The position numbers and the translations under genes were made by a program. Source: Armatimonadota bacterium (GTDB lineage: Bacteria; Armatimonadota; Fimbriimonadia; Fimbriimonadales; GBS-DC). From it: DNA of 64,000 bases. Under the pieces are notes generated by a model. The model was given only the letters and a program-made list of their open reading frames with translations, did no database searches and was not told the origin of the DNA. Location: contig JAIMAN010000002.1 in assembly GCA_023511915.1 (NCBI GenBank), positions 13,488 through 77,487 of the forward strand, given 5' to 3'. Below are positions 37,657 to 59,743 of the stretch, piece by piece (within the stretch, counting starts at the first letter, position 1; each line of letters begins with the position of its first letter).

Positions 37657-37689
37657 TCCGTTCGCCTCCCGCTGGACATTCGCGCGAAA

Positions 37690-37697
37690 TTATCGGC
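37690..37697 (-). promoter_or_regulatory. Candidate sigma-28 (FliA)-type -10 element GCCGATAA upstream of fliM
   Basis: Exact 8-mer GCCGATAA on the fliM sense strand, 33 nt before the TTG start. A CAAA lies 14 nt upstream (consensus TAAA-N15). Confidence 0.3.
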
Positions 37698-37739
37698 ACG
37701 CGCAGGCGGTTTTTGCAGATATGGAATAACCCCCATGCC

Positions 37740-39900: not shown

Positions 39901-41139
39901 ATGCGAGCCGTATGGGTGATTGCGCTATTGGGGTTGCTGCTCGGGCGCGGGCTGACACAGGAGTCGCCCAAGCCGCCTGCGAACGAGAAGCCCGCCGCGC
40001 CGCGCGAAACGACCCTGAGTTTCGCGGGGGAAGGGGAGCGCTGGTGGTGGACGGAGAGCGCGAAAGGCGAGCCGCTCAGCCCGCCCCAGAAGACCAGCGA
40101 CGCCTCCGTCGCGATTAAACTACCCGCAGACGCCGACGCGCTTTGGGTCTACGACGCCAAGACGGGCAACCTCGCCCAGCTCAAGGTCGCCGACCTCAAG
40201 GAGAAGACCGAGCTGACCAGCGACCGATTCAGCCATGTGGCGCGGGTGCAGGTGAACCTGCAGGCGCAGGGCAAGCCCGTCGCCAGCGCGGTGGTGCAAC
40301 TCACCGACGCTAACGGCACGACGCACACGCGCGTGCTGGAGCCATCGGCGGAGGGCGTCCTGATTTTCGAGCGCGTGCCGCTGGGCAAGGTGTCCATCAC
40401 GGCGCGCTACGGCGACGAGGGCAAAGCCTCGCAGGAGACCACGCTGAAAGCCGAGCGGGAGACGCGCGTGCCGATTATCGAACTCGCGCTGAGCGGGAGC
40501 GTCGCCACGCTGGAGGTCGCGCCGAAGGGCAGGGAAGGGCAGGGCGACGCCGAGACGCCCCAAGCCAGTCGGATTGGTACAATCGTGATGTTTGTGATTG
40601 CGCTCGCGCTGGCAATCGGGGTCATCGTGTTTCTGGTGCGCTTGGCGACGCAGAAGCCGCAGCAACTGGGCGAGGCGATGGGCAAACTTGGCGTGGAACT
40701 GCCGCAGCCGACCCCAGCAGGGCAGGGGAGTGGGGCAACCGCCGCGCTCGCCGCGCCGCCGATGCCCGACCTGCCGCCGCTGGAGAGCGCGGGCGTAGAC
40801 CCCACGGCTGCCCCAATCGGCGCGACGGCGACCGTAATCGCTGTGGGACCCGCAACGCGCATCGTCGCCACGCAGGGACCCTACGCGGGGCAGGCGTTCG
40901 AACTCACGGGCGATTTGATGACTATCGGGCGCGACGCTGCCCAAGCCATCGCGCTGGTGAACGATATGGGCGTGAGCCGCACGCACGCGCAAATCATCCG
41001 CCAAGGCGACCAGACGCTGATTGAAGACCTCGGCAGCACGAACGGAACCTATGTGAACGGGGTGCGCATCAGCGCGCCGACGCCCATCAAGCCTGGCGAC
41101 ACGCTCCAACTGGGCGCAAGCCTGTTCCGTGTGGAGTAG
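39901..41139 (+). CDS. Single-pass membrane protein: exported Ig/CarboxypepD_reg-like domain, TM, cytoplasmic FHA domain
   Basis: Signal peptide, TM IGTIVMFVIALALAIGVIVFLV, and C-terminal FHA (MTIGRD...VSRTHAQI...LEDLGSTNGTYVNG). Confidence 0.8.
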   Translation: MRAVWVIALLGLLLGRGLTQESPKPPANEKPAAPRETTLSFAGEGERWWWTESAKGEPLSPPQKTSDASVAIKLPADADALWVYDAKTGNLAQLKVADLKEKTELTSDRFSHVARVQVNLQAQGKPVASAVVQLTDANGTTHTRVLEPSAEGVLIFERVPLGKVSITARYGDEGKASQETTLKAERETRVPIIELALSGSVATLEVAPKGREGQGDAETPQASRIGTIVMFVIALALAIGVIVFLVRLATQKPQQLGEAMGKLGVELPQPTPAGQGSGATAALAAPPMPDLPPLESAGVDPTAAPIGATATVIAVGPATRIVATQGPYAGQAFELTGDLMTIGRDAAQAIALVNDMGVSRTHAQIIRQGDQTLIEDLGSTNGTYVNGVRISAPTPIKPGDTLQLGASLFRVE

Positions 41140-41141
41140 CG

Positions 41142-42527
41142 ATGGTCAGCAAGCTGTTCTATCTGATGGTGTTCGGCGCGGTGGGCGGCGTGCTTGCCTG
41201 GTTCGTGAACGAGCCGTTTATGAACGACGACATCCGCCGAACGGTGGACTGGGGCGAGCTTGCACGGTTTGGCTCAACTTCAGGGCTGCTGATTGGCGCG
41301 ATGATTGGGCTGGCGACGGGTCTGTCGCTGGGCACGGGCAAGCATATCATCCGCGCGGTCGGGCTCGGCGCGGGTGTGGGTGCGATTGGCGGCTGGGTGG
41401 GGGTGACCATCGGGCAGATTTTGTTCGGCGTACTCGGTGCTACTGTGCCGTTTCTGGGGCTGATTGTGGGGCGCATCCTCGGTTGGAGCGCGTTCGGGGC
41501 GTTGATTGGGGTGTCGGAGGGGCTGATTGCGCGCTCGCCGAAGCGGATGCGCAACGGGTTGTTAGGCGGCGCGATTGGCGGGGCGTTGGGCGGCGCGCTG
41601 TTCGATTTTCTGGCGTTCACGATTGGCTCGGTGTTCGGCTTCGCGCTGCGTGCGGAGGGTGAGGCGGGCGCGCCGTCCCGCGCGGTCGGGCTTACACTCA
41701 TCGGCGCGGGGATTGGGCTGTTCATCGGGCTGCTGGAGTGGCTCACCCGCGCGGCGTGGGTGCGCGTGCTGTATGGGCGCAACGAGGGCAAGGACTACCC
41801 GATTGACCGCGACGGGGCGTATCTGGGACGCGACGAGTTGGCGGATGTGCCCCTGCGCGGCGACCCGCAGGTTGCTCCACGCCACGCTGAGATACGCATG
41901 GACGGCGGCGGCTATGTGCTGATCCCGCTCGCGCCGATGGCGGTCAACGGGCAGCCGATTAACGCGCCTGTGGAACTCAACGACGGCGACCTGCTGCAGA
42001 TTGCTTCGTTTCAGGCGCAGTTCCAGTTGCGCGAGGGTCAAGTGGCGCGTTTGCCGCGCGATGTGGTACGCTCGCCGTTGCCGCCCCCGCCGCCGACGCC
42101 GCCAGGCGTGTGCCCCTACTGCGGGCAACGGCAAGACCCGCTGACAGGCGCGTGTGCCTGCATGCCCACAGCGACGCCCCCGTCCCTGACACCGACACAT
42201 GGCTACCCGCCCGCGCCTGCTGCAGGCGGCGTCGCCGTCGCGCAAGCCACAACGCTGGTGGGCATCGACGGCGCATACGCAGGGCAACGCATCGCTGTCC
42301 CACCCGCAGGGCTGACCATCGGGCGTGAGACAGACAACATGCTGACAATCCCCGACCCGTCGGTCAGCCGCCATCACGCGCGTCTCGCCTACGAAAACGG
42401 CGCGCTGGTGATCTACGACTTGGGCAGCACCAACGGCGTCTATGTTAACGAGCAGCGCGTCAGCAAGCAGTCGTTGCGGGCAGGCGACATCGTGCGCTTC
42501 GGCGGGGCGCGATTCCGCATCGAGTAG
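41142..42527 (+). CDS. Polytopic membrane protein with two cytoplasmic FHA domains and a Cys4 ribbon
   Basis: Gly-rich multi-TM N-terminus. FHA-1 (YLGRDELADVPLRGDPQVAPRHAEI), then CPYCGQRQDPLTGACAC, then FHA-2 (TIGRETDN...VSRHHARL...DLGSTNGVYVNE). Starts 2 nt after the previous gene. Confidence 0.8.
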   Translation: MVSKLFYLMVFGAVGGVLAWFVNEPFMNDDIRRTVDWGELARFGSTSGLLIGAMIGLATGLSLGTGKHIIRAVGLGAGVGAIGGWVGVTIGQILFGVLGATVPFLGLIVGRILGWSAFGALIGVSEGLIARSPKRMRNGLLGGAIGGALGGALFDFLAFTIGSVFGFALRAEGEAGAPSRAVGLTLIGAGIGLFIGLLEWLTRAAWVRVLYGRNEGKDYPIDRDGAYLGRDELADVPLRGDPQVAPRHAEIRMDGGGYVLIPLAPMAVNGQPINAPVELNDGDLLQIASFQAQFQLREGQVARLPRDVVRSPLPPPPPTPPGVCPYCGQRQDPLTGACACMPTATPPSLTPTHGYPPAPAAGGVAVAQATTLVGIDGAYAGQRIAVPPAGLTIGRETDNMLTIPDPSVSRHHARLAYENGALVIYDLGSTNGVYVNEQRVSKQSLRAGDIVRFGGARFRIE

Positions 42528-45990: not shown

Positions 45991-48900
45991 GTGATACGAC
46001 GATGGCGATGGCATCTGGCACTGGCGGGGCTGTTATTGGCTTGGACGGGCTACGCCGACGACGGCGCGGGGCAGAGTGAAGACCCCTACCGCGATCGTCC
46101 GTCGCGCCATGTGTTGCCCAGTTCCGCGTATAAGCCCATCCCGCCCCAAAACTACAAGATTGCGCCGCAGCGCGCCCCGCAAAGCGGCAGCGTGCAGTGG
46201 CGCAAAAACGGGCTGTTCGACCCGCAGCAGTTCCATCAGCAGCTGCAGCAACGGCGGCAACGCACGCGCGCGCCGCGCTGGGATCGCGACATCACCAACG
46301 CCGCGCCCGACGAGATTCATCCCGTGTATAACCCTGGCGCGGCGAAGATGTTCTTTGCCAGCAACGCGGGCGGGGTCGGGCAAGACGGGCGACTGGTGAA
46401 CCCCACGCCGCGCTACCGCATCTGGCGCGGCGACCTCGACGAAGGTTCCCAAACCTACTTGAGCAATCTGACGAACCTCACGCCGATTACGGGGGACACG
46501 CCCGACGAACAGTTCGGCAGCCAGATTCAGCCATCGCTTAACGCCTCCGCGAACATTATCGCCTATGCCAACCGCAGCGCGGCAGGCAGCTACAACATCG
46601 TCGTGCGCAACCTCAGCACGGGACAGCGCGTGGTGCTGACCTCCGACAACAACGGCGTCACGCAGAACCTTCGCCCCGCGCTGAGCCCCGGCGGCAACTT
46701 GGTGATTTTCTCGTCCAACCGTCTGCTTGCGAACGAGACGGAAGCCGACCGACGCTATCGCCTCTATGTCGCACGCACGGACGGACGCCCGTTCGAAGAC
46801 GGAACCTTCTTCAGGCGCATTACCTTCCCTGATCCAGGCGAGAACGATGTGGAGCCTGCGTGGTCGCCCGACGGCAACCGTGTGGCGTTCGCCCGCATCG
46901 CCGCCGACGGAACCAGCTACATCTATATGCTGGACTTCAACACGCTGACCGTCGTGCAGTGGACGACCTTCGTCGATAGCAACGGCAACCGCCCACGCGA
47001 CCGTCAACCGACTTGGGCGCAGATTGGCGACACGCCGTATATTGTCTTCTCCTCGACGCGCAAGTCGGGTCAGCCGCACCAGCTGGGCGAGCCGTCCGAC
47101 CGCGTTGATGTGGCGAACAACATCTACGATATTTACTACCTGCCCGCGCTGTTGCCCGAGCCGCCGTCGGCAGCGAACACGCTTTCGTTGACCACCGACC
47201 CCAGCACGGCGGCGTTGGCGCGCCCCGATGTGCCCGGCGTGGCGTCCTTTGTGCCCGCTGCGGGCGCGAAGTACCCGTCCGCCGCCATCGACACGCGCAA
47301 CCGCGTCGCGTACCACTCCACCCGCACGCAGGGCGCAGAGTCGCCCGGACCGGGCGTCCACGACCTGTGGGAGACGCTGGTGTTCGACCTCACGCCGCCG
47401 CTGATGGAGATCCTGCCCATCGTCAGCCCCAAGGAGTCGTTCCCTGGCGACACGGTCACGATTAAGGTGCGTGCGCTGGATCTGCAGAGCGGTATCGACT
47501 TCGTGCGCGTGCAGTTCAAAGATCCCGATAGCGCGGAACAGGACGCCGAAGGGCTGGAACACCGCCTGTACCAGCTGTTCCAGTTCGACATCTTCTTCCC
47601 GAACCGCATTCTGGTCGATCAGGGGCAGGCGTATGTGCCGCTGTTTGTGGAGGTCGGGCAGCAGGCGATTCACCCAGAGACCTACGAATACAAGGAGCCT
47701 TACAGCCTTGCACGGCTGGGCTTCGACGGGCGTATCGACGACACCCTGCTGTTGCAGCCCGAACTGGACGACAACGGCAACCCGACGGATTGGTATGTCG
47801 CCACATGGCGCACACCCGACATTCCGAGCGACTTCTACTTGGATGTGATTGTGCGCGACAATGTGGGCAACGAGTTTATTTACGACAATATTTCGGGCTT
47901 CACGACGCAGCAATTTACGGGCGCGCACAACATCCTGCTGGTCTCGGACTACATGGGCGGTCAAATTTTCGTGCAGAACCGCGTGGACGCGATTGGCAAC
48001 TCCATCACGCGCCCGACTTGGCAGCCCGTCGAGAGCTACTGGACGGACAACCCGACAGGCAAGCCGCCATTTGACCTTACGCAGCCGCCGAGCGGGCAGG
48101 GCACAACGATTCACGGCGACGGGGCAATCCCCCACCCGAACCTCCCGCCGGGCTTTTTCATCCGCTCCGACACGCTGGGGCAGAACACCACCTACGGCAA
48201 CTTGTATAGCATTTGGCGCGTGCAGTGCCGCAACCCGATTACGCCTGCCGTGCTGGCGGGCTACCAGCCGCGCACGGAGCGCGAGCCGACCGACCTCACA
48301 GGCGGCTTCCGCAACAAGCTGCACGCGACCCGAATGGTCATCTGGGGCAGCCCCTACGCAGGCAATGTGTGGGCGGGACCCGGGCACATCTTAGATCCCG
48401 AGGTGCAGACGCTAATCCGCAGCTACCTGCAAAACAGCGGGCGCATGCTGTTTAGTGGTCAGGACATTGCCTGGGCGCTGAGCTTGCGCGGCGCGGTCGC
48501 GAACCAATTCATGAACGACATCCTGCGCGTGTCGTTCGACAGCGACACTGCCGACGATGTGTTCTTCATCCCCTATCGCGGGCTGCGCCACATCCTACAG
48601 GGTGTCGCCCCGCCCGCAGGCGAGGATCCGAACCCGTTCGCCGACAACCCTGGTGGCATCGTCATCTGGACGCGGTTTGAAGGCAACGCGCGCGTTCCCG
48701 ACCAGCCGAACGAGCTGCGCTTGTCGCACCCCGCGGCGTATGTGGTGCTGCCGACCTTCGATACCTTCGATGTGATTCCGCCTGTGGGCGCGGGCACCGG
48801 TCCGCTCTACACCGACGCTGCGTGGAACCAAGTATGGATTGACACCGTGACCGTAGCGCCGTCGGCGCGCCCGACCTACATCTACACGCAGCCGCGCGTC

Positions 48901-51477
48901 AATCAGGGCGCGCTGCTGGGCACCTCCAACCAAGCCGGCTCTTACTACGCTAATGACGCGAACCGCTCGAAGGTCGGCTTCTTGGCGTTCGGCGTCGAGG
49001 GCGTCAATTCGGCGTATTCGCAAGGTCCGCAAGACTTGCTGTGGTGCCGCTCGCTGCGCAACAAAATCATCCACAACGCCTTCGGCTGGATGACGCATAG
49101 CGTGCTGGAGGGCGTGGTGCGCCAGTACGACCCCGACACGCGCACCTTCACCCCTCTGCCGCGCGCGCTGGTGCGCGTGGTGGGCATCGCGCCCCAAAGC
49201 GTTGCGGGCGTGAACGCAGGCTACGCCATCACCGACTCCAACGGATTCTACCGAATCGTGGGGCTGGAAGCGGGCGCGTATGTGGTGGACGCGGAGCGCC
49301 CCGGCTTCAAGACGCAGCACCCCGAAACCGTCGTGCTGGTGGCAGAGACCGCCACAATTAACCTAATTATGCTGGCGACGCCGCCAGGGCAGATCAGCGG
49401 GCGCGTCATCGATATCAACAACCAGCCTGTGCGCGGCGCACTGGTGCGCGCCACGAACACCACCGACCCCGAACTGACGCTCGAGATTGTGACGGACCCC
49501 GACGGCACCTTCCTGATCCCGCGTGTGCCCGTCGGCACTTGGGAGGTGACGGTCGTGTCGCTGGCGTTCGGCGGCTACACGCTGCCTCCTGTGCAGCCCA
49601 CGCCCGACGGCGTCTATCGCGATGTGCAGGTGCGCTCTGGGGAGACGACCAATGTTGGCGACTTCGTGCTGGAGCCTGAACCGGGCACGGTCACGGGAAC
49701 CGTCACAGACGCGAACACGGGGAACCCGATTCCGAACGCGCGCGTCACCGCGGTGGCGGGCACGAACACCCGCGCCGATGTGACCACCGACGAGAACGGC
49801 GTGTACAGCTTCGATGTGCCTGCAGGCGAGTATGTGATTACGGCGGTCGCGCCAGGCTACGCGCCTGAGAGCCAAACGCTGAATGTGCCCGCGAACACGA
49901 CAACCACGCTGAACTTCCAGCTGTCGCTGCTTCCGCCTGGCTCTGCGTCGGGACGCATCGTGCGGCGCTTCGGCGGCGCGCCTGAACCCGGCGCAACAGT
50001 GCGCCTGCGCTTCGGCACGGTGGATGTCCAAACCGCCACCACAGACCCGAACGGCAACTACAGCTTCACGAATGTGCCGCCCGGCGAGTATGTGGTCATC
50101 CCCGAAAAGACGGGCTTCACCTTCACGCCGAACCAGCGCACGATTACCGTGAACTCGAACCAGAACACGGTCATCGGCGAGTTCAAGTCGGAGCCGCTGC
50201 GCACCTTCTTCAAGGGTCGCTTCCTGGTCTCCGCGCCGTATGACTACACGCAGGATGTGCGCACGCTGCTGAATGTGCCTGCGTCGGCGACCTTCCGCTT
50301 CTTCAGCTGGGATCCGAGCCAGTCGCGCTATGTGTTCTATCCAAACGCCCCTGCGAACCGCTTCCAACTCGGACGCGGCTACTTTATCGAGACTTCGGAA
50401 GACCTGCCGCTTGCCATCGAAGGCACGGCTGCCGACACGAACCAGCCGTTCCAGATCCCGCTGCAAGTTGGTTGGAACCTCATCGGCAACCCGTTCACCT
50501 TCGATGTGAACTGGAGCCAGGTGCAGTTCATCGACCCCGACACCAACACGGCGGTCTCCCTGCCGACGGCGGTGGGCAAGGGCATCGTGGCGAACGCGCT
50601 GTGGGGCTACTCGTTCGGCAGCTACTCGGCGACGACCCGCATGAAGGTCTGGGAAGGCTACTGGGTGTACGCCTACCGCGCGACGACGCTGATTATCCCG
50701 CCCAGTGCGGCAGCGACCAGCGCGTCCAACCGCAGCGCGGGCGTGGATGCAGGCAGCTGGCGACTGACACTGGAGGTGCAGTCGGGCGACTTGAAAGATC
50801 GCGCCTACATCGGCGTGTCGCGCAGCGCAACGCCAGGCTACGATACGGCGCATGACCTACTCAAGCCGCCGCCCGTCGGCGCGGACTATGTGCACATCAG
50901 CCTGCCGCGCATGAGCTGGGGCGCGCAGAGCGGCGTGTACGGCGTGGACATCCAGCCCGCCACGCGCAGCGCAAGCTGGGAGTTCACCGTGGAGAGCAGC
51001 CAGCCGAACCGCGAGGTCACCTTGCACTGGCCCGACGCGCAGCAGCTGCCGCGCGCGGCGAACCTCGTGCTGGTGAACCTTGAAACGGGCGAGCGACGCT
51101 ACCTGCGCACTTCGGGCGCGTACACCTTCCGCACGAACGCCAGCGGCGTGAGCCGATTCCGCCTCGAAATGGCGTCCAGCGGCGGGCTGCTGCGCATCCA
51201 GCAAGTGCAGGTGCAGTCGGGGCGCGGCGCACAGCACACCGTCGCGTTCCAACTGACAGGAGACGCAACCGTGCAGGTGAATATCCTATCGGGCGGTAAG
51301 GTCGTGCGCCAGCTGCTGAATCAAGCGACCCGCAGCGGCGTGCAGCAAGCCAGCTGGGACGGGCGCGACCAGAGCGGAATCGCGCTGCCGCCCGGCGCCT
51401 ACACCGTAGAGATTCGAGCCGTGAGCGAAGACGGTCAGGTTGCTCGCGCGACCGCGCCGCTGGTGCTCACGCGCTGA
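45991..51477 (+). CDS. Giant exported protein (1828 aa): TolB/PD40-like beta-propeller, central region, four to five CarboxypepD_reg-like domains, shared C-terminal module ending in an FlgD-Ig-like domain
   Basis: Signal peptide MIRRWRWHLALAGLLLAWTGYA. PD40-like repeats (PALSPGGNLVIFSSNR, EPAWSPDGNRVAFARI). CarboxypepD_reg-like repeats (GRVIDINNQPVRGALVRA...DPDGTFLIPRVPVGTWEV and similar). C-terminus ...PPGAYTVEIRAVSEDGQVARATAPLVLTR. Confidence 0.8.
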   Translation: MIRRWRWHLALAGLLLAWTGYADDGAGQSEDPYRDRPSRHVLPSSAYKPIPPQNYKIAPQRAPQSGSVQWRKNGLFDPQQFHQQLQQRRQRTRAPRWDRDITNAAPDEIHPVYNPGAAKMFFASNAGGVGQDGRLVNPTPRYRIWRGDLDEGSQTYLSNLTNLTPITGDTPDEQFGSQIQPSLNASANIIAYANRSAAGSYNIVVRNLSTGQRVVLTSDNNGVTQNLRPALSPGGNLVIFSSNRLLANETEADRRYRLYVARTDGRPFEDGTFFRRITFPDPGENDVEPAWSPDGNRVAFARIAADGTSYIYMLDFNTLTVVQWTTFVDSNGNRPRDRQPTWAQIGDTPYIVFSSTRKSGQPHQLGEPSDRVDVANNIYDIYYLPALLPEPPSAANTLSLTTDPSTAALARPDVPGVASFVPAAGAKYPSAAIDTRNRVAYHSTRTQGAESPGPGVHDLWETLVFDLTPPLMEILPIVSPKESFPGDTVTIKVRALDLQSGIDFVRVQFKDPDSAEQDAEGLEHRLYQLFQFDIFFPNRILVDQGQAYVPLFVEVGQQAIHPETYEYKEPYSLARLGFDGRIDDTLLLQPELDDNGNPTDWYVATWRTPDIPSDFYLDVIVRDNVGNEFIYDNISGFTTQQFTGAHNILLVSDYMGGQIFVQNRVDAIGNSITRPTWQPVESYWTDNPTGKPPFDLTQPPSGQGTTIHGDGAIPHPNLPPGFFIRSDTLGQNTTYGNLYSIWRVQCRNPITPAVLAGYQPRTEREPTDLTGGFRNKLHATRMVIWGSPYAGNVWAGPGHILDPEVQTLIRSYLQNSGRMLFSGQDIAWALSLRGAVANQFMNDILRVSFDSDTADDVFFIPYRGLRHILQGVAPPAGEDPNPFADNPGGIVIWTRFEGNARVPDQPNELRLSHPAAYVVLPTFDTFDVIPPVGAGTGPLYTDAAWNQVWIDTVTVAPSARPTYIYTQPRVNQGALLGTSNQAGSYYANDANRSKVGFLAFGVEGVNSAYSQGPQDLLWCRSLRNKIIHNAFGWMTHSVLEGVVRQYDPDTRTFTPLPRALVRVVGIAPQSVAGVNAGYAITDSNGFYRIVGLEAGAYVVDAERPGFKTQHPETVVLVAETATINLIMLATPPGQISGRVIDINNQPVRGALVRATNTTDPELTLEIVTDPDGTFLIPRVPVGTWEVTVVSLAFGGYTLPPVQPTPDGVYRDVQVRSGETTNVGDFVLEPEPGTVTGTVTDANTGNPIPNARVTAVAGTNTRADVTTDENGVYSFDVPAGEYVITAVAPGYAPESQTLNVPANTTTTLNFQLSLLPPGSASGRIVRRFGGAPEPGATVRLRFGTVDVQTATTDPNGNYSFTNVPPGEYVVIPEKTGFTFTPNQRTITVNSNQNTVIGEFKSEPLRTFFKGRFLVSAPYDYTQDVRTLLNVPASATFRFFSWDPSQSRYVFYPNAPANRFQLGRGYFIETSEDLPLAIEGTAADTNQPFQIPLQVGWNLIGNPFTFDVNWSQVQFIDPDTNTAVSLPTAVGKGIVANALWGYSFGSYSATTRMKVWEGYWVYAYRATTLIIPPSAAATSASNRSAGVDAGSWRLTLEVQSGDLKDRAYIGVSRSATPGYDTAHDLLKPPPVGADYVHISLPRMSWGAQSGVYGVDIQPATRSASWEFTVESSQPNREVTLHWPDAQQLPRAANLVLVNLETGERRYLRTSGAYTFRTNASGVSRFRLEMASSGGLLRIQQVQVQSGRGAQHTVAFQLTGDATVQVNILSGGKVVRQLLNQATRSGVQQASWDGRDQSGIALPPGAYTVEIRAVSEDGQVARATAPLVLTR
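50290..51474 (+). other. Shared C-terminal module, copy 1 (GWNxIGNP motif at 50470-50496)
   Basis: Collinear with 54950-56282 and 57700-58997. Blocks are PLQVGWNLIGNPF, WEGYWVYA, WRLTLEVQSGD, EVTLHWPD...LVLVNLETGERRYL, and the FlgD-Ig-like tail. Confidence 0.75.
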
Positions 51478-51506: not shown

Positions 51507-53282
51507 GTGAAAACACGGATGAGACGAACTTGGACGACGCGCACAGTGTATCTCGGCGTGCTGAGCATGCTCGCAGTGGGGCTGCTCTACCCGCTGGGCG
51601 CTGTGCGCGCCTACGCCCAGCTGGTGCAACTGCCGCGTGTGGCAGTGCTGGACTTCGAGAACAAAAGCGGCTTCGGTGGCGCGAGCATCGCGCGCGCAGC
51701 CACCGACGCCGTGGCAGGCGAATACCAAAAGTCGCGCAAGTTCGAGGTGTTGGCGCGCGGCGAAATCGAACAGCAACTCAAAGACCTTGATCTCTCGACG
51801 CCCCTCGATAAGACAGGGTTCTTGCGTCTGGGACGCGCGCTTCAGACCGAGTCGCTCATCACGGGCGAGGTGAACGCCGTGACCTTCGTGGGCAACCCGA
51901 AGCAGGCGCAAGTCGTGATCACCGTGCGGGTGATCGACATCGCGTCGGGTGAACCCATCAACGGCGCGGTCGCCACGGGCTTCAGCAACCGACGCCCTGG
52001 CTTCACGGGCGACGACGATACGCTGGTGCAAGAAGCCATCCGCAACGCTGCATTTGAAGCCGTGCGCACCATCAACAACTACACCATCCCTGAAGCGACA
52101 ATTCTAACCACGCGCGCGGGCAAAGAGGTGCTGCTGACCCGCGGCATTCGCGGCGGGCTGCAACCGGGCATGGAGATGATTGTCGTGCGGCGCGGCGAGG
52201 AGGTCGGACGCATCCGTGTGACCCAAGTTTCCGATAGCGACGCTGTGGGCGAAATCATCGACTTCGGGCGCGGCATTCAGAGCGAAGATCGCGCACGCGC
52301 CGTCTTCCGCGTGCCCAGCGTCGAGGTCAAAGCGGGGCGCGTGGTCACCGAGCGACCCCGCCAGCGCGGCGAGGGCAATAAACTGCTGCGGGCGCTGGGT
52401 CCGATTCTCATCATCGGGCTCATCGCGTTCGGCGTGGCGCGCGGCTCGTCGGGCGGCAACACTCCCGTACAGACAGTGCTGGCGGAGCCAAGCGCGGACG
52501 GCAACTTTGAACCGTTCGTGCGCGTCTCGTGGAAGACGACCCTCTTCGCCAAGAGCGCGCCCGACACCATCCAATGGCAAATCTACCGCTCCGATTTTAT
52601 CGGCACGGACGGCAACGGCAACCTGCAGCCTGTCGGCGTCACGCCTGGCAACCAAAACTTCTTCGTGGACTCGACTGTGCCGCGCAATGTGAGCTACGCC
52701 AGCTTGCCGCGCGAGGGCAGTGAAGACTTGGAACTGGAAGAACTTGAGGGCGCGCCTGGCGTTGCCCCCGGACGCTCGTACACCTACCAGATTGCGTTGG
52801 TCTACCGCGAGACACGCGAAGCTGAAGGTCAATCGCAGATTATCTATCGACTCTCTGACCGCGTGCGTTCGGGGCAGGCAACCGTGCTCCTGCCAGTGCA
52901 ACTGTTGACCCCTGTGCAGCGCAGCGAGGATGTCGACCCGAAGGATGTGCGCTTCAGCTGGCTGGCGGCGGAGGGCGCGAACGCCTACCGCGTGGAGGTC
53001 TCCACAGACCCGACCTTCAACGATCGGAATCGTACTTTCGTGTCGCCCGAGATTCTCTCAACTGCTGTGGGCGGCTCGCCTGTCTCCACCGAGCGCATCA
53101 ACCTTGAGACAGGGCTGCTCAATCGGCTGGGGCTGACAGGGCAACGGGTCACACTCTACTGGCGCGTCGGGGCGCGTAATCTTGGGGACAATCCTGGTCC
53201 CATGCCCGGACCTGGCGGGCTGCGCTATGTGTGGAGCCGACCGTTCGAGTTCACCACACAAGAGCTGCCGCCCAGCCCGTAG
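51507..53282 (+). CDS. Exported/membrane protein: CsgG/LpoB-like N-terminal domain, small beta-barrel domain, basic stretch plus TM, Fn3-like C-terminal half
   Basis: GTG start with SD GAAGGAGGAG and a signal peptide. RVAVLDFENKSG...SLITGEVNAV...VRVIDIASGEPI, a mid-protein TM LLRALGPILIIGLIAFGVA, then WLAAEGANAYRVEVSTDPTF (Fn3-like). Confidence 0.7.
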   Translation: MKTRMRRTWTTRTVYLGVLSMLAVGLLYPLGAVRAYAQLVQLPRVAVLDFENKSGFGGASIARAATDAVAGEYQKSRKFEVLARGEIEQQLKDLDLSTPLDKTGFLRLGRALQTESLITGEVNAVTFVGNPKQAQVVITVRVIDIASGEPINGAVATGFSNRRPGFTGDDDTLVQEAIRNAAFEAVRTINNYTIPEATILTTRAGKEVLLTRGIRGGLQPGMEMIVVRRGEEVGRIRVTQVSDSDAVGEIIDFGRGIQSEDRARAVFRVPSVEVKAGRVVTERPRQRGEGNKLLRALGPILIIGLIAFGVARGSSGGNTPVQTVLAEPSADGNFEPFVRVSWKTTLFAKSAPDTIQWQIYRSDFIGTDGNGNLQPVGVTPGNQNFFVDSTVPRNVSYASLPREGSEDLELEELEGAPGVAPGRSYTYQIALVYRETREAEGQSQIIYRLSDRVRSGQATVLLPVQLLTPVQRSEDVDPKDVRFSWLAAEGANAYRVEVSTDPTFNDRNRTFVSPEILSTAVGGSPVSTERINLETGLLNRLGLTGQRVTLYWRVGARNLGDNPGPMPGPGGLRYVWSRPFEFTTQELPPSP

Positions 53283-53363: not shown

Positions 53364-56285
53364 ATGAGACGGATGTGGTTATGGCTGGTTGGAGTGTTCG
53401 TCGCGGCGCAGTGTGCGTGGGCGCAAGCGCCGCAATTGACGCCAGACGATGTTGTGCCTGGCGAGATGATTGTACGGCTCAAGCCCGGACGCACCCTGGA
53501 GACCGCGCGTGCGATTGCAGGCTCCGTGAACGCAGAGGTTCGTCCCATCCGTGTGCAGGATACCTATGTGCTGCGCTTGCGCGATCAGGGGCTTGCCGCC
53601 ACTACGCTGCTCCAAAAGGTGCAGGATACGGTCAAGAGCCTTGAAAAACACCCTGATGTGCTTTACATCGAGCCGCACTACATCCTGCGCTATCACGACA
53701 TCCCGAACGATCCGCTCTTCCCAGAACAGTGGGCGCTAACGATGATGCAAATGCCTGCTGCGTGGGACATCGAGAAAGGGCAGGCGGGGATTCGTGTTGC
53801 CTTCATCGACGACAACTTCCAACGGTCACATCCCGACTTGGCAGGCTTATTCGACCCGCTCTCGCGCAACTTCGCCGCCGATACGCCTGATGATAACATC
53901 GACCCCGAAGGCTCCGGCTTCTCGCACGGAACCTCAACGGTAGGCGTGGCGGCAGCGGTCACCAACAACGGAATCGGTATCGCAGGGCTTATCTGGGAAA
54001 ATGTGAAAATCGTCGGGCTCAAGGTCACCGAGCGACCTCTGGGTCCGCTGTACACGGAGAATGTGCTGGAAGCCTACCAGCATGTGATTGACAACGCCGC
54101 GCAGATTCATGTGCTGAATATGAGCTATGGCGGCTACTTCTTCTCGCAGCAGTCGAACGCGCTCATCCAAGAGATCTATCGTCGCGGCGTGGTGCCTGTT
54201 GCATCGGCGGGCAACGACAATGTGAATATTCCCAGCTACCCCGCGAACTTCGAGAATGTGGTGAATGTGTCGGCTGTTGGGCGCACGGGCGCGAAGGCAT
54301 CTTACTCCAACTACGGCAATATCGATTTGGCGGCGCCAGGCGGCGATCAGGAAAGCAGTTTCTTCGACGGCGTAATTACGACCGCTTCCACCTCGCAGCA
54401 ATATACCTATGTGCAGGGGACTTCGTACTCGGGACCGTATGTCGCCGCGGCGGTTGCGTTAGTGCTTTCGGCAGGCGCACCGCGACACAATGCGAACACA
54501 GTGGAGCCTGAAGCGGTAATCGCGCTCAAGGAGACCGCCGATCCACGCGGGCGAAATGTGCCCGACCCTGAACTGGGCTTTGGGATTATCAACCTTGACC
54601 AAGCTCTGCGCGGGGTAGGCGGCGTGAATGTCGCGTTCGTTGAACCTGTTTCGGGCACGACGATCGACACCCGCTTAGTGCGCGTACAAGTCGTGGTGCG
54701 CCGCGTGCTGAATAACGACCCCGCGAACATCCTGAATGTGCGCTTGAACGGCGACCCACTCCCGCGTAGCCAGTGGGAGCCGACGGCTGTGGTGAACCCG
54801 CAGCAGAGAACGATAACGCTGGACTTTGTGGTTGCGCTACCGGGCGAGGGACGCCATACGATCTCGGTTGAGGCGGTTGGACAGGACGGCGTGAGCGGCA
54901 GCGGCGCCACGCGCGTGATTGCAAAGGCGCGCGTGCAAAGTGCAGGGCTGGCGATGTTCTCCACACCCTACGATATTTCGGCAGCCCCTGAAGAGCTGTT
55001 TGGCAACGACGCGATTCTGGCGCGTTATCTGCCGTCAGAAGGCGCGTATGCCCGCTACTCGGCGGCGAATCCCGACCCGCGCGCCAGCTTCAATCCACCG
55101 GCCGTCGCTGTGCGTCCCGACGGCTCGAACAACCCCACGCCGCCGCGCGGCTTGGGCTACTTCCTGCGCACCACCTCGCCCGCCTTTATTCTGGGCGAGG
55201 AGCAGGTGGATGTGAATACCGCCTACCTCATCCCGCTGCAAGAGGGTTGGAACATGATTGGCAACCCCTTCCCGTTCAATGTGCCGTGGGCGGCATGTGA
55301 GGTTGAGGTGTTGGGTGCGGGGGGCATCGTACAGCGGCTCAGCCTGCAGGAAGCCGCCGACCGCGAATATATCCGCCTGCAAATCTACCGCTACATTCCG
55401 CTGACAGGTGAATACACTTGGCGCACGGCGCCGCTGGGCGAGCTGATCGCGTGGCAAGCGCACTGGGTACGCGCGCTCAAGCCGTGTACGCTGGTTGTGC
55501 CGCCCGTCGGCAGCCTACGCAGTCAGCCCGATGATACGCCGCGCGTTGCCCCCGTGCAGTCCGATGGCTGGCTCCTGCGCCTGATTGCCCGCAGTGGTGA
55601 CCGCGAGGACGCCAACAACCTCATCGGTACCGCAGCCCACGCTAACGACGCTCTCGGAACCGAGGATGTGGAGAAGCCGCCCGCATTCCAGGCGTATGTC
55701 GCGCTCACGATTCTGGAGCCGCGCACGCGCAGCGCGCTCGCGCAAGACCTGCGACGCAACGTGCGACGCACGCAGCGCTGGAACATCGAGGTTACGACCG
55801 ACCAGCCCAACGCGGAGGTCACCTTGCAGTGGAGCCAGGAACTGCCCGTGCCAAAAGGGACGCGCCTGGTGCTGATTGACCAAGTCACAGGCGAGCGCAT
55901 CTCGATGCTCCAAAACAGCTCGCACCGCTTCCGCACGGACGAGACCAGCCGACGGCGGTTCGTCATCGAGGCGCAGCCCGCCCGCGCCAGCCGCCTGCAG
56001 GTGACGAATGTGTCGATCACCCAGACGCGCGGCAACCAGTTCGCGATTCAATACGCCCTTAACGGCGAAGCGTCAGTGCAGGTGCTGGTTCAGGATGCAA
56101 CGGGCAAGACCGTCGCGCGTCTACAATCAGGCACGCGCACTTCAGGCGTCAGCACGGCGACTTGGAACGGACGCACCGACTCGGGCATCGCGGTGCCGCC
56201 TGGAACCTATCAGGTGCAGATTATCGCCACTGGAGACGACGGTGAGGCAGCGCGTGTGGTGCGACCGCTTGTGGTCGCCCGCTAA
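53364..56285 (+). CDS. Exported S8 (subtilisin-family) serine peptidase with I9-like propeptide and the shared C-terminal module
   Basis: Signal peptide. Catalytic triad contexts AFIDDNF (Asp), HGTSTVGVAAA (His) and GTSYSGPYVAAAVALV (Ser). C-terminus ...PPGTYQVQIIATGDDGEAARVVRPLVVAR. Confidence 0.85.
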   Translation: MRRMWLWLVGVFVAAQCAWAQAPQLTPDDVVPGEMIVRLKPGRTLETARAIAGSVNAEVRPIRVQDTYVLRLRDQGLAATTLLQKVQDTVKSLEKHPDVLYIEPHYILRYHDIPNDPLFPEQWALTMMQMPAAWDIEKGQAGIRVAFIDDNFQRSHPDLAGLFDPLSRNFAADTPDDNIDPEGSGFSHGTSTVGVAAAVTNNGIGIAGLIWENVKIVGLKVTERPLGPLYTENVLEAYQHVIDNAAQIHVLNMSYGGYFFSQQSNALIQEIYRRGVVPVASAGNDNVNIPSYPANFENVVNVSAVGRTGAKASYSNYGNIDLAAPGGDQESSFFDGVITTASTSQQYTYVQGTSYSGPYVAAAVALVLSAGAPRHNANTVEPEAVIALKETADPRGRNVPDPELGFGIINLDQALRGVGGVNVAFVEPVSGTTIDTRLVRVQVVVRRVLNNDPANILNVRLNGDPLPRSQWEPTAVVNPQQRTITLDFVVALPGEGRHTISVEAVGQDGVSGSGATRVIAKARVQSAGLAMFSTPYDISAAPEELFGNDAILARYLPSEGAYARYSAANPDPRASFNPPAVAVRPDGSNNPTPPRGLGYFLRTTSPAFILGEEQVDVNTAYLIPLQEGWNMIGNPFPFNVPWAACEVEVLGAGGIVQRLSLQEAADREYIRLQIYRYIPLTGEYTWRTAPLGELIAWQAHWVRALKPCTLVVPPVGSLRSQPDDTPRVAPVQSDGWLLRLIARSGDREDANNLIGTAAHANDALGTEDVEKPPAFQAYVALTILEPRTRSALAQDLRRNVRRTQRWNIEVTTDQPNAEVTLQWSQELPVPKGTRLVLIDQVTGERISMLQNSSHRFRTDETSRRRFVIEAQPARASRLQVTNVSITQTRGNQFAIQYALNGEASVQVLVQDATGKTVARLQSGTRTSGVSTATWNGRTDSGIAVPPGTYQVQIIATGDDGEAARVVRPLVVAR
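54950..56282 (+). other. Shared C-terminal module, copy 2 (GWNMIGNPF at 55245-55271)
   Basis: Collinear blocks: PLQEGWNMIGNPF, WQAHWVRA, WLLRLIARSGD, EVTLQWSQ...LVLIDQVTGERISM, and the FlgD-Ig-like tail. Confidence 0.75.
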
Positions 56286-56303: not shown

Positions 56304-59000
56304 ATGAAACGATGGATGTCAGCAATCTTGAATGGTAGCCTGGTGATGGGGATAGCTCTCGCCCAAGGCGGGAGCTATCAGCCAGGACCTGGGCAACCGT
56401 GCGGCTGTCCCAACAACGATAACCCGGTCAGCGACGATTACGCCGCACTCACGGTGGACAATGGCGTGCTGGGCGCTACGCTTGGCTTGGGCGGTACTGT
56501 TACTTGGATTACAGGATGCTTCCCGATTGAGAATGCGGAGTGTACCACTCGTCCCGCTGAGGGCAGTATCCAGCTGGGCACTTCAGGCGGCAACGCGCTG
56601 CTGGGCGATCGGGGCATCGCGCTGACCTCAGGCTATCCGTGGGGCGTCTATCCCGGCGGGATGTATATCACTATGCAGGCGCAGCGCGAGGGTCAGACCC
56701 AAACCTTCGTTTGGGGACGCGAGGGCGGACCGACGGTCACTTTTGATCAAGCCTGGCGCGGCGCGAGTGGGTTCTACATCCGCCGTATCTGGAATGTGGA
56801 AGGCTGGGACACCGACATGCGGATTGATTTGGTACAGTCCGCGGCGCGTATCAGCCTGCGCGTGCGCAACAATGGCGACACGCCCGCCTCGCTCGCGCTC
56901 CGATTGGCTTCGGATGTCGAAACAGGCGTTGAGGAGGGCTTCGACCGCAACGGCGCGTCGCGACCGCCCTATGTCTATGTGCAGGGGCAGCGACCCATAC
57001 GCACCTACACTGATATTCGGGGCGTGCAAATCCCCAACGCTATCGAGTTCTATCTGGGGCGCGGCAACCTCGCCGGCTCCTCGCGATACCTTCTGCGCCC
57101 CGTCAAGGGATTCGAAGACCAGACGCCCATCGATCGGCTGGTCGTCGGCGCGTGGCTTTTCATACAGGGCACAACGATTTGGGAGCCGACGCTGTTCCCC
57201 GATGCGTTCATCAATGATGTCGCGATCAACCTGTTTGTTAACGCACGCAATTTTGCGCCGGGTCAAGAGCGTGAGTTTGTGTTCTATGTGACGCTGACGC
57301 CCGTGGATTTGGATGTGCAGCCGCCTGTGGCGGTGGGCGTCGAGGCGCTGCCTGTGGTGGAGCCAGACCCGCAAGACCTGTCGCAGTTGGCAAATGACGG
57401 CGAGTTCGTGATTGTCGCGAATGTCACGAACCAGTTCTTCATTGTCGGGCGCGAGATTGACCTGACGAATGTGGCGGTGGACTTGTCGCTGCCTGCAGGC
57501 GTCTCGCTTGCGCCTGGGGAAACGCGCACCCGCACCATCGCGCGCCTTGCACCTGGGCAGACCGCGCCCTTGAGGTGGCGTGTGGTGGCAGACCCGACCA
57601 CAGTGGGCTTCGTGACCTTCCGCGTTTCGGTGCAGGCGCCGCCCGCACCCACAAAGTCCGTGGCGCGCACGATTCTCATCTCCGCCACCGCCAACCGCAA
57701 ACTGGAGTCGGGCTTCCAGATCGTCTCGATTCCCTTCACGACCACCAGCTCACTGGATGAGGTGTTGAATCTGCCCGGCGCGTACCAAGCGAAGCGCTGG
57801 AACCCCGAACGCGAGCTATATGAGACCATAGACACTATTCAGCCTGGTCAGGGCTTCTGGATCTTCTTGCCAGGCGACGCCACCACTGCCCAATACGATG
57901 CGACCAACTTACGCTTCCCCGACAATGTGTTCACCACAAGTGTGCCACTGCCGCTCAAGCGTGGGTGGAACCAAATTGGCAATCCGTACCCTTATCCGCT
58001 CGTGCTGGGGCAGGTAGTCATCGTGCCAGCCAGTGACCCGTCGCGTAGCATTAGCTTCTTCGAGGCGGCGCAGCGTGGCGTCATTCGCGGCGTTCTCTAC
58101 TACTGGGACGAGTTCTCGCGCGAGTATAAGTTCACTTCTGACCCGAACACGCCACTCCTGCCGCATCGGGGCTACTGGATCAAAGTGAACGAAGACATTG
58201 AGTTCGTCTACCCGCCTGTGTTTTTGCCTGGTACGGGCTTTGGCGGGGTGATCATCCGTTCCGCTGAGGAGCGTCCCAATCTGCCCAACGATTGGCGACT
58301 GCAGATTGTGGCGCGTACGACCCGCGGCGCGGACACGCAGAACTTCATCGGCATGAGCAGCGGGCGCAGCGCAGGCGACATCGAGGAGCCGCCGACGCCG
58401 CTGCCTGACCGCCCCGTGAACTTGGTCATCCTCAAGTCGGGCACAGGCGCGCCGCTGATGCAAGAAATCCGCCCGCTTGCCAATCGCCAACAGTTCGACT
58501 TGATGGTGGAGGCGGGCGCGGGCGAGGAGGTCACGCTGTCCTTCCCGAACCTGAACACGGTGCCGCAGGGCTACCGCCTGCGCCTGACCGACTTGAACAC
58601 GGGACGCGCGGTCGATCTGCGCACGACGCCTGAGTACCGCTTCGTCTCCACAGGGCGCACGCGCCTGCAAATCACCGTCGAGCGCGCGGCGCGTACAGGC
58701 GCGCTGATTACCAGCGTGAATGTGGGCAGCGCAGGGCGCGGCGCCAACAGCGTGTCCATCTCCTATGTGCTGGCAGACAACGCGCAGACCAGCATCCAGA
58801 TTCTTGGCTCGGATGGTCGAGCGATTGCAAGCCTGCATCGCGGACGCGCAGCCACGCGCGGCGTCAACACGGTCTCGTGGAACCTGCGCGACGATCAAGG
58901 GCGCGCCGTACCGCCGGGAACCTATCAGGTGCAGGTCGAGGCGCGCACTGAAGACGGTCAGACGGCGCGCGCGGTGCGACCGCTGGTGCTGACCCGATAA
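56304..59000 (+). CDS. Exported hypothetical protein (898 aa) carrying the shared C-terminal module
   Basis: Signal peptide MKRWMSAILNGSLVMGIALAQG. I do not recognise the N-terminal roughly 460 aa. C-terminus ...PPGTYQVQVEARTEDGQTARAVRPLVLTR. Confidence 0.75.
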   Translation: MKRWMSAILNGSLVMGIALAQGGSYQPGPGQPCGCPNNDNPVSDDYAALTVDNGVLGATLGLGGTVTWITGCFPIENAECTTRPAEGSIQLGTSGGNALLGDRGIALTSGYPWGVYPGGMYITMQAQREGQTQTFVWGREGGPTVTFDQAWRGASGFYIRRIWNVEGWDTDMRIDLVQSAARISLRVRNNGDTPASLALRLASDVETGVEEGFDRNGASRPPYVYVQGQRPIRTYTDIRGVQIPNAIEFYLGRGNLAGSSRYLLRPVKGFEDQTPIDRLVVGAWLFIQGTTIWEPTLFPDAFINDVAINLFVNARNFAPGQEREFVFYVTLTPVDLDVQPPVAVGVEALPVVEPDPQDLSQLANDGEFVIVANVTNQFFIVGREIDLTNVAVDLSLPAGVSLAPGETRTRTIARLAPGQTAPLRWRVVADPTTVGFVTFRVSVQAPPAPTKSVARTILISATANRKLESGFQIVSIPFTTTSSLDEVLNLPGAYQAKRWNPERELYETIDTIQPGQGFWIFLPGDATTAQYDATNLRFPDNVFTTSVPLPLKRGWNQIGNPYPYPLVLGQVVIVPASDPSRSISFFEAAQRGVIRGVLYYWDEFSREYKFTSDPNTPLLPHRGYWIKVNEDIEFVYPPVFLPGTGFGGVIIRSAEERPNLPNDWRLQIVARTTRGADTQNFIGMSSGRSAGDIEEPPTPLPDRPVNLVILKSGTGAPLMQEIRPLANRQQFDLMVEAGAGEEVTLSFPNLNTVPQGYRLRLTDLNTGRAVDLRTTPEYRFVSTGRTRLQITVERAARTGALITSVNVGSAGRGANSVSISYVLADNAQTSIQILGSDGRAIASLHRGRAATRGVNTVSWNLRDDQGRAVPPGTYQVQVEARTEDGQTARAVRPLVLTR
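57700..58997 (+). other. Shared C-terminal module, copy 3 (GWNQIGNPY at 57962-57988)
   Basis: Collinear blocks: PLKRGWNQIGNPY, HRGYWIKV, WRLQIVARTTRG, EVTLSFPN...LRLTDLNTGRAVDL, and the FlgD-Ig-like tail. Confidence 0.75.
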
Positions 59001-59047: not shown

Positions 59048-59743
59048 ATGGTGAGAACTTACTGGGCAGTGATCATCGCATGCCTGTCGCTCGGATGGAG
59101 TGCGGCGCAGACACGCGAACTGGTGCTGTTCCCGTTCGCGCAGGGCGCGGCGGTGCAACCGAGCGACGAGTTCAATGTAAATGTCGAGGCGCTCAACGCC
59201 CTCTACGCGCAGCTCAAAGAGATTCCCAGCATCTATGTGCTACGGTTCCGTGAGACGAACCCGTCGATTACCCGCGCGATTGAGGAGAACCGTATTCGGC
59301 GCGACCGCCTGAACCCACCGTTCAACGAGCGCGAGGCGGACGGTACTTGGCGCGCCGCGCGCGTGGGCGCACTGCTGGATGTTGACCTCGCGTTTGCAGG
59401 GCGCATCGAGGAGTTCAGCTACGACCCCACCAAGCGCGAGGCAATTATCACCATCAGCGGCGACCTCATCGATGTGCGCACGGGTGAGGTCATCGTCTCG
59501 GTGGCGGAGTCAGGACGCGGGCGGTTAGGCTCTGACCAAGAGGATGTGAACATCGCCCGAATCGCTGCGGTGGCTGAGGTCGCCCAGAAGGTGGGCGCAG
59601 CGTTGCGCGAACGCTTAGCGCCGCCTGTGCAGCAACCAACCCAACCGCAAGAAGAGCGTCGCCCCGACCGCAAACGCGAGCGCGCGACAGTGACGCTGTT
59701 CGCGATTATTCTGGGCGCGGTGCTGGGCGGCTCGCAGTTTTAG
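59048..59743 (+). CDS. Small exported CsgG/LpoB-like domain protein with basic linker and C-terminal TM anchor
   Basis: Signal peptide MVRTYWAVIIACLSLGWSAAQ. DLAFAGRIEEFSYDP...ISGDLIDVRTGEVIV is paralogous to the N-domain of the 51507 gene. Tail is RRPDRKRERATVTLFAIILGAVLGGSQF. Confidence 0.7.
   Translation: MVRTYWAVIIACLSLGWSAAQTRELVLFPFAQGAAVQPSDEFNVNVEALNALYAQLKEIPSIYVLRFRETNPSITRAIEENRIRRDRLNPPFNEREADGTWRAARVGALLDVDLAFAGRIEEFSYDPTKREAIITISGDLIDVRTGEVIVSVAESGRGRLGSDQEDVNIARIAAVAEVAQKVGAALRERLAPPVQQPTQPQEERRPDRKRERATVTLFAIILGAVLGGSQF

Follow-up and report, generated by a model that had tools for sequence, protein, structure and literature searches.

The tailed proteins of the locus

The DNA analysed here (hereafter the window) is a stretch of 64,000 nucleotides of the forward strand from an Armatimonadota bacterium (GTDB lineage Fimbriimonadia, Fimbriimonadales, GBS-DC; GenBank assembly GCA_023511915.1, contig JAIMAN010000002.1, positions 13,488 to 77,487). 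Three large genes located close together in the window encode proteins A, B and C, which end in one and the same kind of C-terminal tail. All three are identical to NCBI entries (MCL6534551, MCL6534553 and MCL6534554) of an 'Armatimonadetes bacterium' metagenome-assembled genome (MAG) and have signal-peptide-like N-termini. Their positions, given as everywhere below in window coordinates, are as follows.

45991..51477, + strand: protein A, 1828 amino acids (aa); signal peptide, PD40 propeller region, four CarboxypepD_reg domains, tail; NCBI MCL6534551.1
53364..56285, + strand: protein B, 973 aa; signal peptide, Fervidolysin-type prodomain, S8 subtilase (Peptidase_S8), tail; NCBI MCL6534553.1
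56304..59000, + strand: protein C, 898 aa; signal peptide, uncatalogued N-terminal region of ~460 aa, tail; NCBI MCL6534554.1
50200..51474, + strand: whole tail of A
54930..56282, + strand: whole tail of B
57696..58997, + strand: whole tail of C

The last ~425–450 residues of A, B and C are collinear and homologous, with 28–35 % identity and 72 invariant columns in the MAFFT alignment. The similarity is not confined to the very C-terminus: after removal of the part recognised by Pfam as FlgD_ig, pairwise BLASTP of the tails gave 2e-34 for A-B, 5e-19 for A-C and 8e-26 for B-C, which in terms of sequence comparison is far above the chance level. When the window was translated in six frames and searched with a hidden Markov model (HMM) of the module, three copies and no more were found.

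These results agree in most points with a preliminary description made from the letters of the window alone. It had described the tails as collinear, which both comparisons bear out, and had listed five conserved blocks, all of which are found in the given order in the three + strand open reading frames (ORFs). Its statement that the N-terminal parts are unrelated is also correct: they belong to PD40 and CarboxypepD_reg in A and to the prodomain and Peptidase_S8 in B, and that of C gave no significant family match. The number of copies was right, and the start of the A tail has to be moved, since homology begins somewhat upstream of the proposed position (50200 instead of 50290). The block PL(Q/K)xGWNxIGNP(F/Y) begins 1017, 1050 and 1047 nt upstream of the stop codons of A, B and C, so that the distances given earlier (1007, 1040 and 1038 nt) were off by ~10 nt.

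Domain structure of the tail

The tail is composed of three domains, namely D1 (~170–190 aa), D2 (~140 aa) and a C-terminal domain (CTD) of 95 aa, the last being immunoglobulin-like (Ig-like).

50200..50703, + strand: D1 of A, beta-sandwich with IPLQVGWNLIGNPF and WEGYWVYA
50752..51180, + strand: D2 of A, with WRLTLEVQS, an acidic loop ending in KPPP, EVTLHWP and LVLVNLETGE
51193..51474, + strand: CTD of A, Ig-like, FlgD_ig 39.4 bits, ends in APLVLTR
54930..55505, + strand: D1 of B, ~14 strands in the AlphaFold2 model, confidence per residue (pLDDT, predicted local distance difference test) mostly >90
55563..55985, + strand: D2 of B, ~10 strands in the AlphaFold2 model, conserved acidic loop
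55998..56282, + strand: CTD of B, seven strands in the AlphaFold2 model, FlgD_ig 52.8 bits, TIGR04183 sub-threshold at 14.2 bits
57696..58217, + strand: D1 of C
58287..58697, + strand: D2 of C
58710..58997, + strand: CTD of C, FlgD_ig 36.2 bits

The AlphaFold2 model of the B tail, for which an alignment of 37 sequences served as input, is a confident all-beta structure of three domains (pLDDT 89.8; predicted template modelling score, pTM, 0.80). In this model the GWNxIGNPF and WxGYWV motifs (the latter being WxxHWV in B) belong to D1 with its ~14 strands, and the conserved loop D..N..G....A.DG.D..D..(E/K)PP of D2 is placed between strands two and three. Modelled separately, D1-D2 reaches pTM 0.87, which suggests that the two domains are packed as one rigid unit. 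Most of the invariant residues of D1-D2 are Gly, Pro and Trp, as in structural turns and cores.

Pfam recognises just the last ~80 residues of the tails as FlgD_ig (PF13860), with the scores listed above against the cut-off of 27 bits, in line with the FlgD-Ig-like terminal domain of the preliminary description. This is the only curated model passed by the tails. Although all three are above the gathering threshold, they are devoid of the N-terminal hook-cap domain of FlgD and have no flagellar genes nearby; the NCBIfam FlgD equivalogs cover the Ig-like part only. The match is explained by a shared Ig-like fold family, which also includes the CTDs of type IX secretion (T9SS). With NCBIfam, the tails gave FlgD-type matches far below the cut-off as well as weak ones to TIGR04183 and the CTD of PorU, the sortase of T9SS. 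When 39 family members were compared with Pfam at E≤1, only CTD families appeared: FlgD_ig in 31, Por_Secre_tail in 25 and CHU_C in 21.

The D1-D2 part, on the contrary, has no match in Pfam (even at E≤1 with the same 39 members), NCBIfam or the PDB. Comparison of its sequence profile with PDB chains yielded nothing, and Foldseek with the D1-D2 model found no PDB entry at E≤1e-3 (best E 0.016, probability 0.25), the faint likenesses being solely to accessory beta-sandwiches of glycosidases. A Foldseek search with the whole tail returned generic beta-sandwiches at TM≤0.20 (Vpr fibril, glucuronidases of glycoside hydrolase family 2, C5a peptidase); these hits were driven by the CTD and were discarded as uninformative. 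Literature searches directed at T9SS in Armatimonadetes/Armatimonadota and at PF13860/PF18962 retrieved no paper on this tail or on T9SS in the phylum. The first four blocks of the preliminary description, which it could not assign to a known domain, are indeed uncatalogued, and D1-D2 does not decompose into common independent Pfam domains; they are not loose blocks, however, but parts of two separable domains. The CTD is thus of a known kind, and D1-D2 represents a domain family that is very large and yet uncatalogued.

Distribution and modularity of D1-D2

The size of the family was estimated by an exhaustive hmmsearch with the D1-D2 profile against 1.84 billion representatives, which gave 17,851 protein clusters at E≤1e-3 (9,354 at ≤1e-10 and 3,143 at ≤1e-30). 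Close relatives of the tail were found by a word-indexed search only in Fimbriimonadales and other Armatimonadota MAGs; a profile with distant members added revealed relatives also in KSB1, Calditrichia and other bacteria. In the proteins from KSB1, Calditrichia and Marinimicrobia, D1-D2 is followed by a bona fide Por_Secre_tail. A group of module proteins of the KSB1/Calditrichia type (P0025, P0031, P0037 and others) is ~600 aa long and shares a conserved N-terminal region of ~180 aa (..FFRQGG..ERG(L/V)EYY(L/V)..TFP..NP..) that has no Pfam family.

The position of the module within the protein is highly regular. It ends 90–120 residues before the C-terminus, as D1-D2-CTD, in 105 of the 143 best non-query matches; in ~30 of the same matches a second D1 comes after D1-D2 and closes the protein, no CTD being present. 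The latter subfamily (D1-D2-D1') is large, comes from unclassified 'bacterium' MAGs (P0075, P0079, P0091, P0110 and others), ends in ..C.L.L.. and includes proteins of up to 5087 aa. Further architectures are D2-D1-D2-CTD, D1-D2 alone and D1 alone. Such variants indicate that D1 and D2 are autonomous domains, arranged by default as a C-terminal D1-D2-CTD. One S8 protease (P0265), which is assigned to Candidatus Doudnabacteria of the candidate phyla radiation (CPR), has the Fervidolysin prodomain, S8 domain and D1-D2 as in B and stops right after D2; if the binning is right, D1-D2 is present in a lineage for which neither an outer membrane nor T9SS would be expected.

The N-terminal partners vary widely. 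Of 40 proteins sampled at random, most often S8 was present (12/40), followed by CarboxypepD_reg (5), PD40 (4), FG-GAP (3), fn3 (3) and LVIVD (2), with FGE-sulfatase, VWA, BNR and others being rarer. Protein B resembles Fervidolysin-type and other subtilases, in which prodomain and S8 domain are followed by C-terminal beta-sandwiches. However, no solved subtilase accessory domain matching D1-D2 was found by Foldseek, and the same tail occurs also on non-protease passengers. The number of clusters, the position count and the variety of partners together substantiate the earlier view of a mobile module specific to the C-terminus.

The terminal domain and its relation to T9SS

Type A CTDs of T9SS cargo are defined by a seven-strand Ig-like fold of ~70–100 aa, extreme C-terminal position and conserved motifs A–E, among them motif B of the PNP type, motif D and lysines in motif E (PMC10202324). 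In the AlphaFold2 model the CTD of B consists of seven strands over tail residues 361–452 (pLDDT of the blocks 85–96) and reaches the stop codon, and the motifs give a mixed picture, a motif D-like PPG(T/A)Y being present and motifs B and E differing (see below). Alignment by hhalign of 20 Armatimonadota CTDs with 15 CTDs of relatives bearing PF18962 gave 98.5 % with E 2.3e-15 over 64 columns. This profile comparison indicates that the terminal domain is homologous to the T9SS type A CTD.

The use of the domain in Armatimonadota was followed by a scan with CTD HMMs of 60 Armatimonadota loci (0.99 Mb) and the window, a sample biased towards loci with the module. The models matched 127 module-bearing ORFs and no genuine ORF without the module, and CTD-only ORFs were met only in Bacteroidota, WOR-3 or unclassified loci. 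For comparison, the neighbourhood examined in a true T9SS genome contains six other Por_Secre_tail proteins within 21 kb. The absence of CTD ORFs lacking the module suggests that in Armatimonadota the CTD is not a general tag but a part of one fixed D1-D2-CTD cassette.

Neighbouring genes and conservation of the locus

Three further proteins encoded at the locus look like periplasmic and outer-membrane components of the envelope.

51507..53282, + strand: D591, between A and B; signal peptide, LpoB/CsgG/TolB_N-like N-domain, TsaP/FlgT_C-like small barrel, hydrophobic segment, FN3-like C-terminal region
59048..59743, + strand: G231, small exported protein with C-terminal hydrophobic helix
59745..61682, + strand: H645, signal peptide, Big_1/Invasin_D3 domain, beta-rich region of ~520 aa; putative outer-membrane barrel

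The profile of D591 orthologues matches LpoB best (PDB 4q6l, 1.4e-5), and in addition the TsaP/FlgT_C small barrel (3jc8, 1.9e-5) and FN3. D591 itself scores 13.4 bits with Pfam CsgG (PF03783), the gathering threshold being 20.8; CsgG is matched at E≤0.1 by 10 of its 22 orthologues (best 2.9e-7), and models of LpoB, TolB_N and LptE match too. The hydrophobic segment is located near residues 292–312. Such an architecture is reminiscent of proteins that assemble in the periplasm into rings around machines of the outer membrane.

In NCBI, G231 bears the name CsgG/HfaB family, and in JGI a member of its cluster is called 'ABC-type transport auxiliary subunit'; searches of Pfam (E≤0.01) and NCBIfam (E≤10) gave no match to G231. 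Its stop codon and the start of H645 are 1 nt apart, and it could be an LptE-like partner of the latter. The ~520-aa region of H645 is rich in Gly, Ser, Thr, Asn, Gln and aromatic residues, contains no hydrophobic helix and ends in ...LLTAFY, the terminal residue being aromatic in the window protein and in most orthologues. The profile of 21 H645 orthologues is weakly similar to LptD in PDB 7omm_A (E 0.009 and 0.024) in the region with the PxYY..L.P motif. Equally weak signals come from Pfam LptD_N (2/21 orthologues, best E 0.0036) and LptC (1/21), and H645 of the window has no LptD-family match. Judging from these similarities, H645 could be a barrel of the outer membrane, either a divergent LptD-like one or another; for a true LptD, with G231 as its LptE, which was also considered, the signals are weak.

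Scanning a single genome of each species revealed 77 loci, most of them in Armatimonadota, where they occur in Fimbriimonadales, Chthonomonadales (including Chthonomonas calidirosea), Armatimonadia and Abditibacteriales. The few loci outside the phylum belong to WS1, WOR-3, Desantisbacteria, Planctomycetes, Salinibacter, Cytophagales and other Bacteroidota. Armatimonadota loci ranging from Fimbriimonadia to Chthonomonadales and Armatimonadia show one recurrent order, A, D591, B, C, (G231), H645, with 25–40 % identity, and this figure includes the unrelated N-terminal parts of A, B and C. D591, C and H645 form the core, several lineages having retained only these three. In some loci a fourth tailed protein of ~1770–2030 aa is encoded directly after C and before G231 (L008, 14057-20134; L009, 14061-20147; L025, 13815-19115). 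The linkage of the tail to these genes, which the preliminary description had set against a genome-wide occurrence, is real in Armatimonadota in the form of synteny; it is not exclusive, as the module is also found elsewhere in the same genomes and in other phyla. Around the genes of two family members from FCB-group phyla (Fibrobacterota, Chlorobiota and Bacteroidota) no conserved partner genes were seen.

Proposed function of the tail

Taken together, the data led us to consider the shared tail as a three-domain C-terminal cassette for surface display or anchoring, perhaps served by the co-encoded envelope proteins, and we give this proposal an even chance. It draws on the observed homology of the tails, their domain structure and C-terminal position, the promiscuity of their N-terminal partners, the homology of the CTD to those of T9SS and the synteny of the locus; location at the surface, anchoring by D1-D2 and involvement of D591, G231 and H645 are what we infer from homology, position, promiscuity and synteny. 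The tail as such is a solid finding of value for annotation, and the mechanism is a proposal. In the same sense, of the earlier idea of a sorting or anchoring tail the modular C-terminal unit has been established, and its function is suggested by the gene context and by the CTD being homologous to those of the T9SS type.

The proposed mechanism would be as follows. A, B and C, with their signal peptides, would each be exported by Sec. The CTD would be the element that is read at the outer membrane, be it for translocation, attachment or both; attachment that depends on a CTD has its precedent in T9SS (PMC10202324). D1 and D2 would form a membrane-proximal pedestal holding the variable passenger (propeller, subtilase or the uncatalogued domain of C) on the cell surface, and may bind a surface glycan, lipopolysaccharide (LPS) or each other. 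Within Armatimonadota, A, B and C would all be delivered to, or held at, the same site of the envelope. D591, G231 and H645 would be the likely partners, by analogy with T9SS type B cargo encoded beside the PorP/SprF barrel.

Several observations weigh against this proposal. On the side of the CTD, TIGR04183 matches B below its curated threshold (E 0.033, 14.2 bits, cut-off 23) and does not match A or C, and PF18962 matches none of the three at E≤0.1. The NxPNPF motif of the FCB relatives is replaced by xGRGxx, a PNP motif is lacking, and the C-terminus RPLV(L/V)(T/A)R or APLVLTR carries Arg instead of Lys, the lysines of motif E being absent. Owing to the missing NxPNPF, the end not rich in Lys and the failure of the curated models, the CTD is taken here as a homologue of T9SS CTDs and not as a demonstrated member of the functional class. 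The T9SS is described as a system of Bacteroidota and the FCB group (PMC10202324), and in the genome paper of Fimbriimonas genes of the type II secretion system and of LPS are listed and no T9SS (PMC4072686). As to the gene context, several tailed proteins of Armatimonadota are encoded away from D591 and H645, and the assignment of H645 as a barrel rests on weak signals. Finally, D1-D2 occurs without any CTD in the D1-D2-D1' proteins and the Doudnabacteria S8 protease, and there are proteins with D1 only, so that the role of D1-D2 is not strictly tied to a CTD pathway.

A bolder version of the display proposal, which we regard as unlikely though worth stating, is that the D1-D2-CTD tails together with D591, G231 and H645 constitute a T9SS-independent outer-membrane display pathway of Armatimonadota, outside the FCB group, in which the CTD is read by a dedicated small machinery. 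If true, such a pathway would be a sister or a precursor of the cargo-attachment step of T9SS.

The significance of the tail follows from the fact that C-terminal sorting and anchoring tails decide what a bacterium displays on its surface. The ~340 residues of D1-D2 are missing from Pfam, NCBIfam and the PDB and yet are present in at least 17,851 clusters, almost always between a variable passenger and a T9SS-type CTD, which makes them a sizeable annotation gap for secreted proteins of FCB-group bacteria and Armatimonadota. The arrangement in Armatimonadota, with the CTD only on D1-D2 and with a phylum-conserved locus that includes envelope proteins, is new among C-terminal sorting and anchoring tails. 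A T9SS-related CTD in a phylum not known for T9SS, all sampled copies being fused to D1-D2, offers a handle on CTD-based display, or on its origin, outside Bacteroidota. To our knowledge, the cell surface of Armatimonadota is essentially unstudied, and the locus, with its propeller giant, subtilase, uncatalogued protein, LpoB/CsgG-like proteins and putative barrel, is a candidate for a core system of the phylum's envelope.

Alternative explanations

D1-D2 could instead be a ligand binder similar to carbohydrate-binding modules (CBMs) or lectins, or an adhesin, that aims secreted enzymes and binders at an external substrate and not at the cell's own surface, the CTD being only the export tag. 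The strong conservation of the D1 aromatics (GWN, WxGYW), the promiscuous enzymatic or binding partners at the N-terminus, the faint Foldseek likeness to glycosidase accessory domains and the occurrence of D1-D2 without CTD, also in a CPR bacterium, are compatible with such a role. However, the invariant residues are mostly the structural Gly, Pro and Trp, and no known CBM family is matched. Substrate binders usually shuffle their position, so the strict placement next to the CTD is unexpected, as is the phylum-wide linkage to envelope proteins; we therefore consider this explanation rather improbable.

Another possibility is that A, B and C are ordinary T9SS cargo of a cryptic or divergent Armatimonadota T9SS, with the CTD as a type A-like signal and D1-D2 as an extended part of it (cf. 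type B CTDs, which need >200 residues). The likeness to type A CTDs (PF18962/TIGR04183) is considerable: a ~95-aa seven-strand Ig-like sandwich stands at the extreme C-terminus of varied passengers, is homologous to the CTDs of relatives bearing PF18962, which in FCB phyla have D1-D2 directly before it, and gives the weak TIGR04183 and PorU CTD matches. D1-D2-CTD proteins are also found in T9SS phyla beside many other Por_Secre_tail proteins, and in T9SS secretion a part is played by Ig-like domains and longer stretches upstream of the CTD (PMC10202324). Type B cargo in particular is clustered with the PorP/SprF anchor and needs a region longer than the last 100 residues (PMC10202324), which recalls the long tails beside the gene of the putative barrel H645. 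This resemblance is a mechanistic analogy only: the window proteins show no relation to PF13585/TIGR04131, and H645 is not PorP/SprF by Pfam.

What makes the T9SS-cargo explanation quite improbable in our opinion is, first, that reports of T9SS are confined to the FCB group (PMC4072686, PMC10202324) and no T9SS component was seen in the 64-kb window. Second, the CTDs of the window are sub-threshold, lack the PNP motif (motif B) and the motif E lysines, having Arg for Lys. Third, in ~1 Mb of Armatimonadota DNA the CTD was never found without D1-D2, whereas in true T9SS genomes CTD-only proteins crowd the surroundings of the gene, and the ~340-aa D1-D2 is part of no described T9SS signal.

The tail might also be a self-assembly unit, by which A, B and C co-polymerise through D1-D2 into a lattice of the surface-layer (S-layer) type or a heteromeric surface complex. 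Three co-encoded and co-conserved passengers on one rigid two-domain unit would fit such a unit, as would the duplication of D1 at the C-terminus in D1-D2-D1', which is expected of an interaction domain. The proteins, however, have no similarity to known S-layer proteins beyond generic Ig-like repeats in A, and many family members are encoded by a single gene per locus; the prospects of this explanation are accordingly poor.

Age of the triplication

There is practically no chance that the tails are a functionally meaningless product of recent tandem duplication or gene conversion of the 3' end of one gene, in spite of the three genes being adjacent and on the same strand: this is rejected by the grouping of orthologues, the synteny and the DNA-level similarity, and the same tail is carried by thousands of unrelated proteins. 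Within the genome the tail of A is 33 % identical to that of B and 27 % to that of C, versus 59 % to the A tail of locus L006 and 41 % to that of locus L011. The tails of A, B and C are 27–33 % identical to one another within the genome and 53–59 % identical to their own orthologues in another Fimbriimonadia genome, and across classes they group by orthologue type, which means that the triplication predates the split of the classes and that no concerted evolution has taken place. At the DNA level the likeness is confined to three short patches of 60–83 % identity (at the GWN motif, over the WxGR..G..PPG.Y stretch and in the final 17 codons), which speaks against recent gene conversion. The three tails are therefore ancient paralogues. 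The preliminary description, which considered the tails to be more than simple gene duplication, was right in that no recent duplication is seen in the orthologue grouping and the DNA patches; a duplication of the tail did occur, but long ago.

Other features near the locus

Scanning the locus for promoters and terminators yielded no signal exceeding the expectation from shuffled sequence. Upstream of gene A, positions 37422-39863 (+ strand) encode a protein of 813 aa that contains 11 HAF repeats (TIGR02913, E 3.7e-83), such repeats being usual in exported proteins. It is followed at 39901-42527 (+ strand) by two adjacent FHA-domain proteins of 412 and 461 aa, the second having two FHA domains. 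The FHA pair lies upstream of genes for an amidohydrolase, ribosomal protein S1 and CoaE, and this run meets gene A at a gap of 37 nt.

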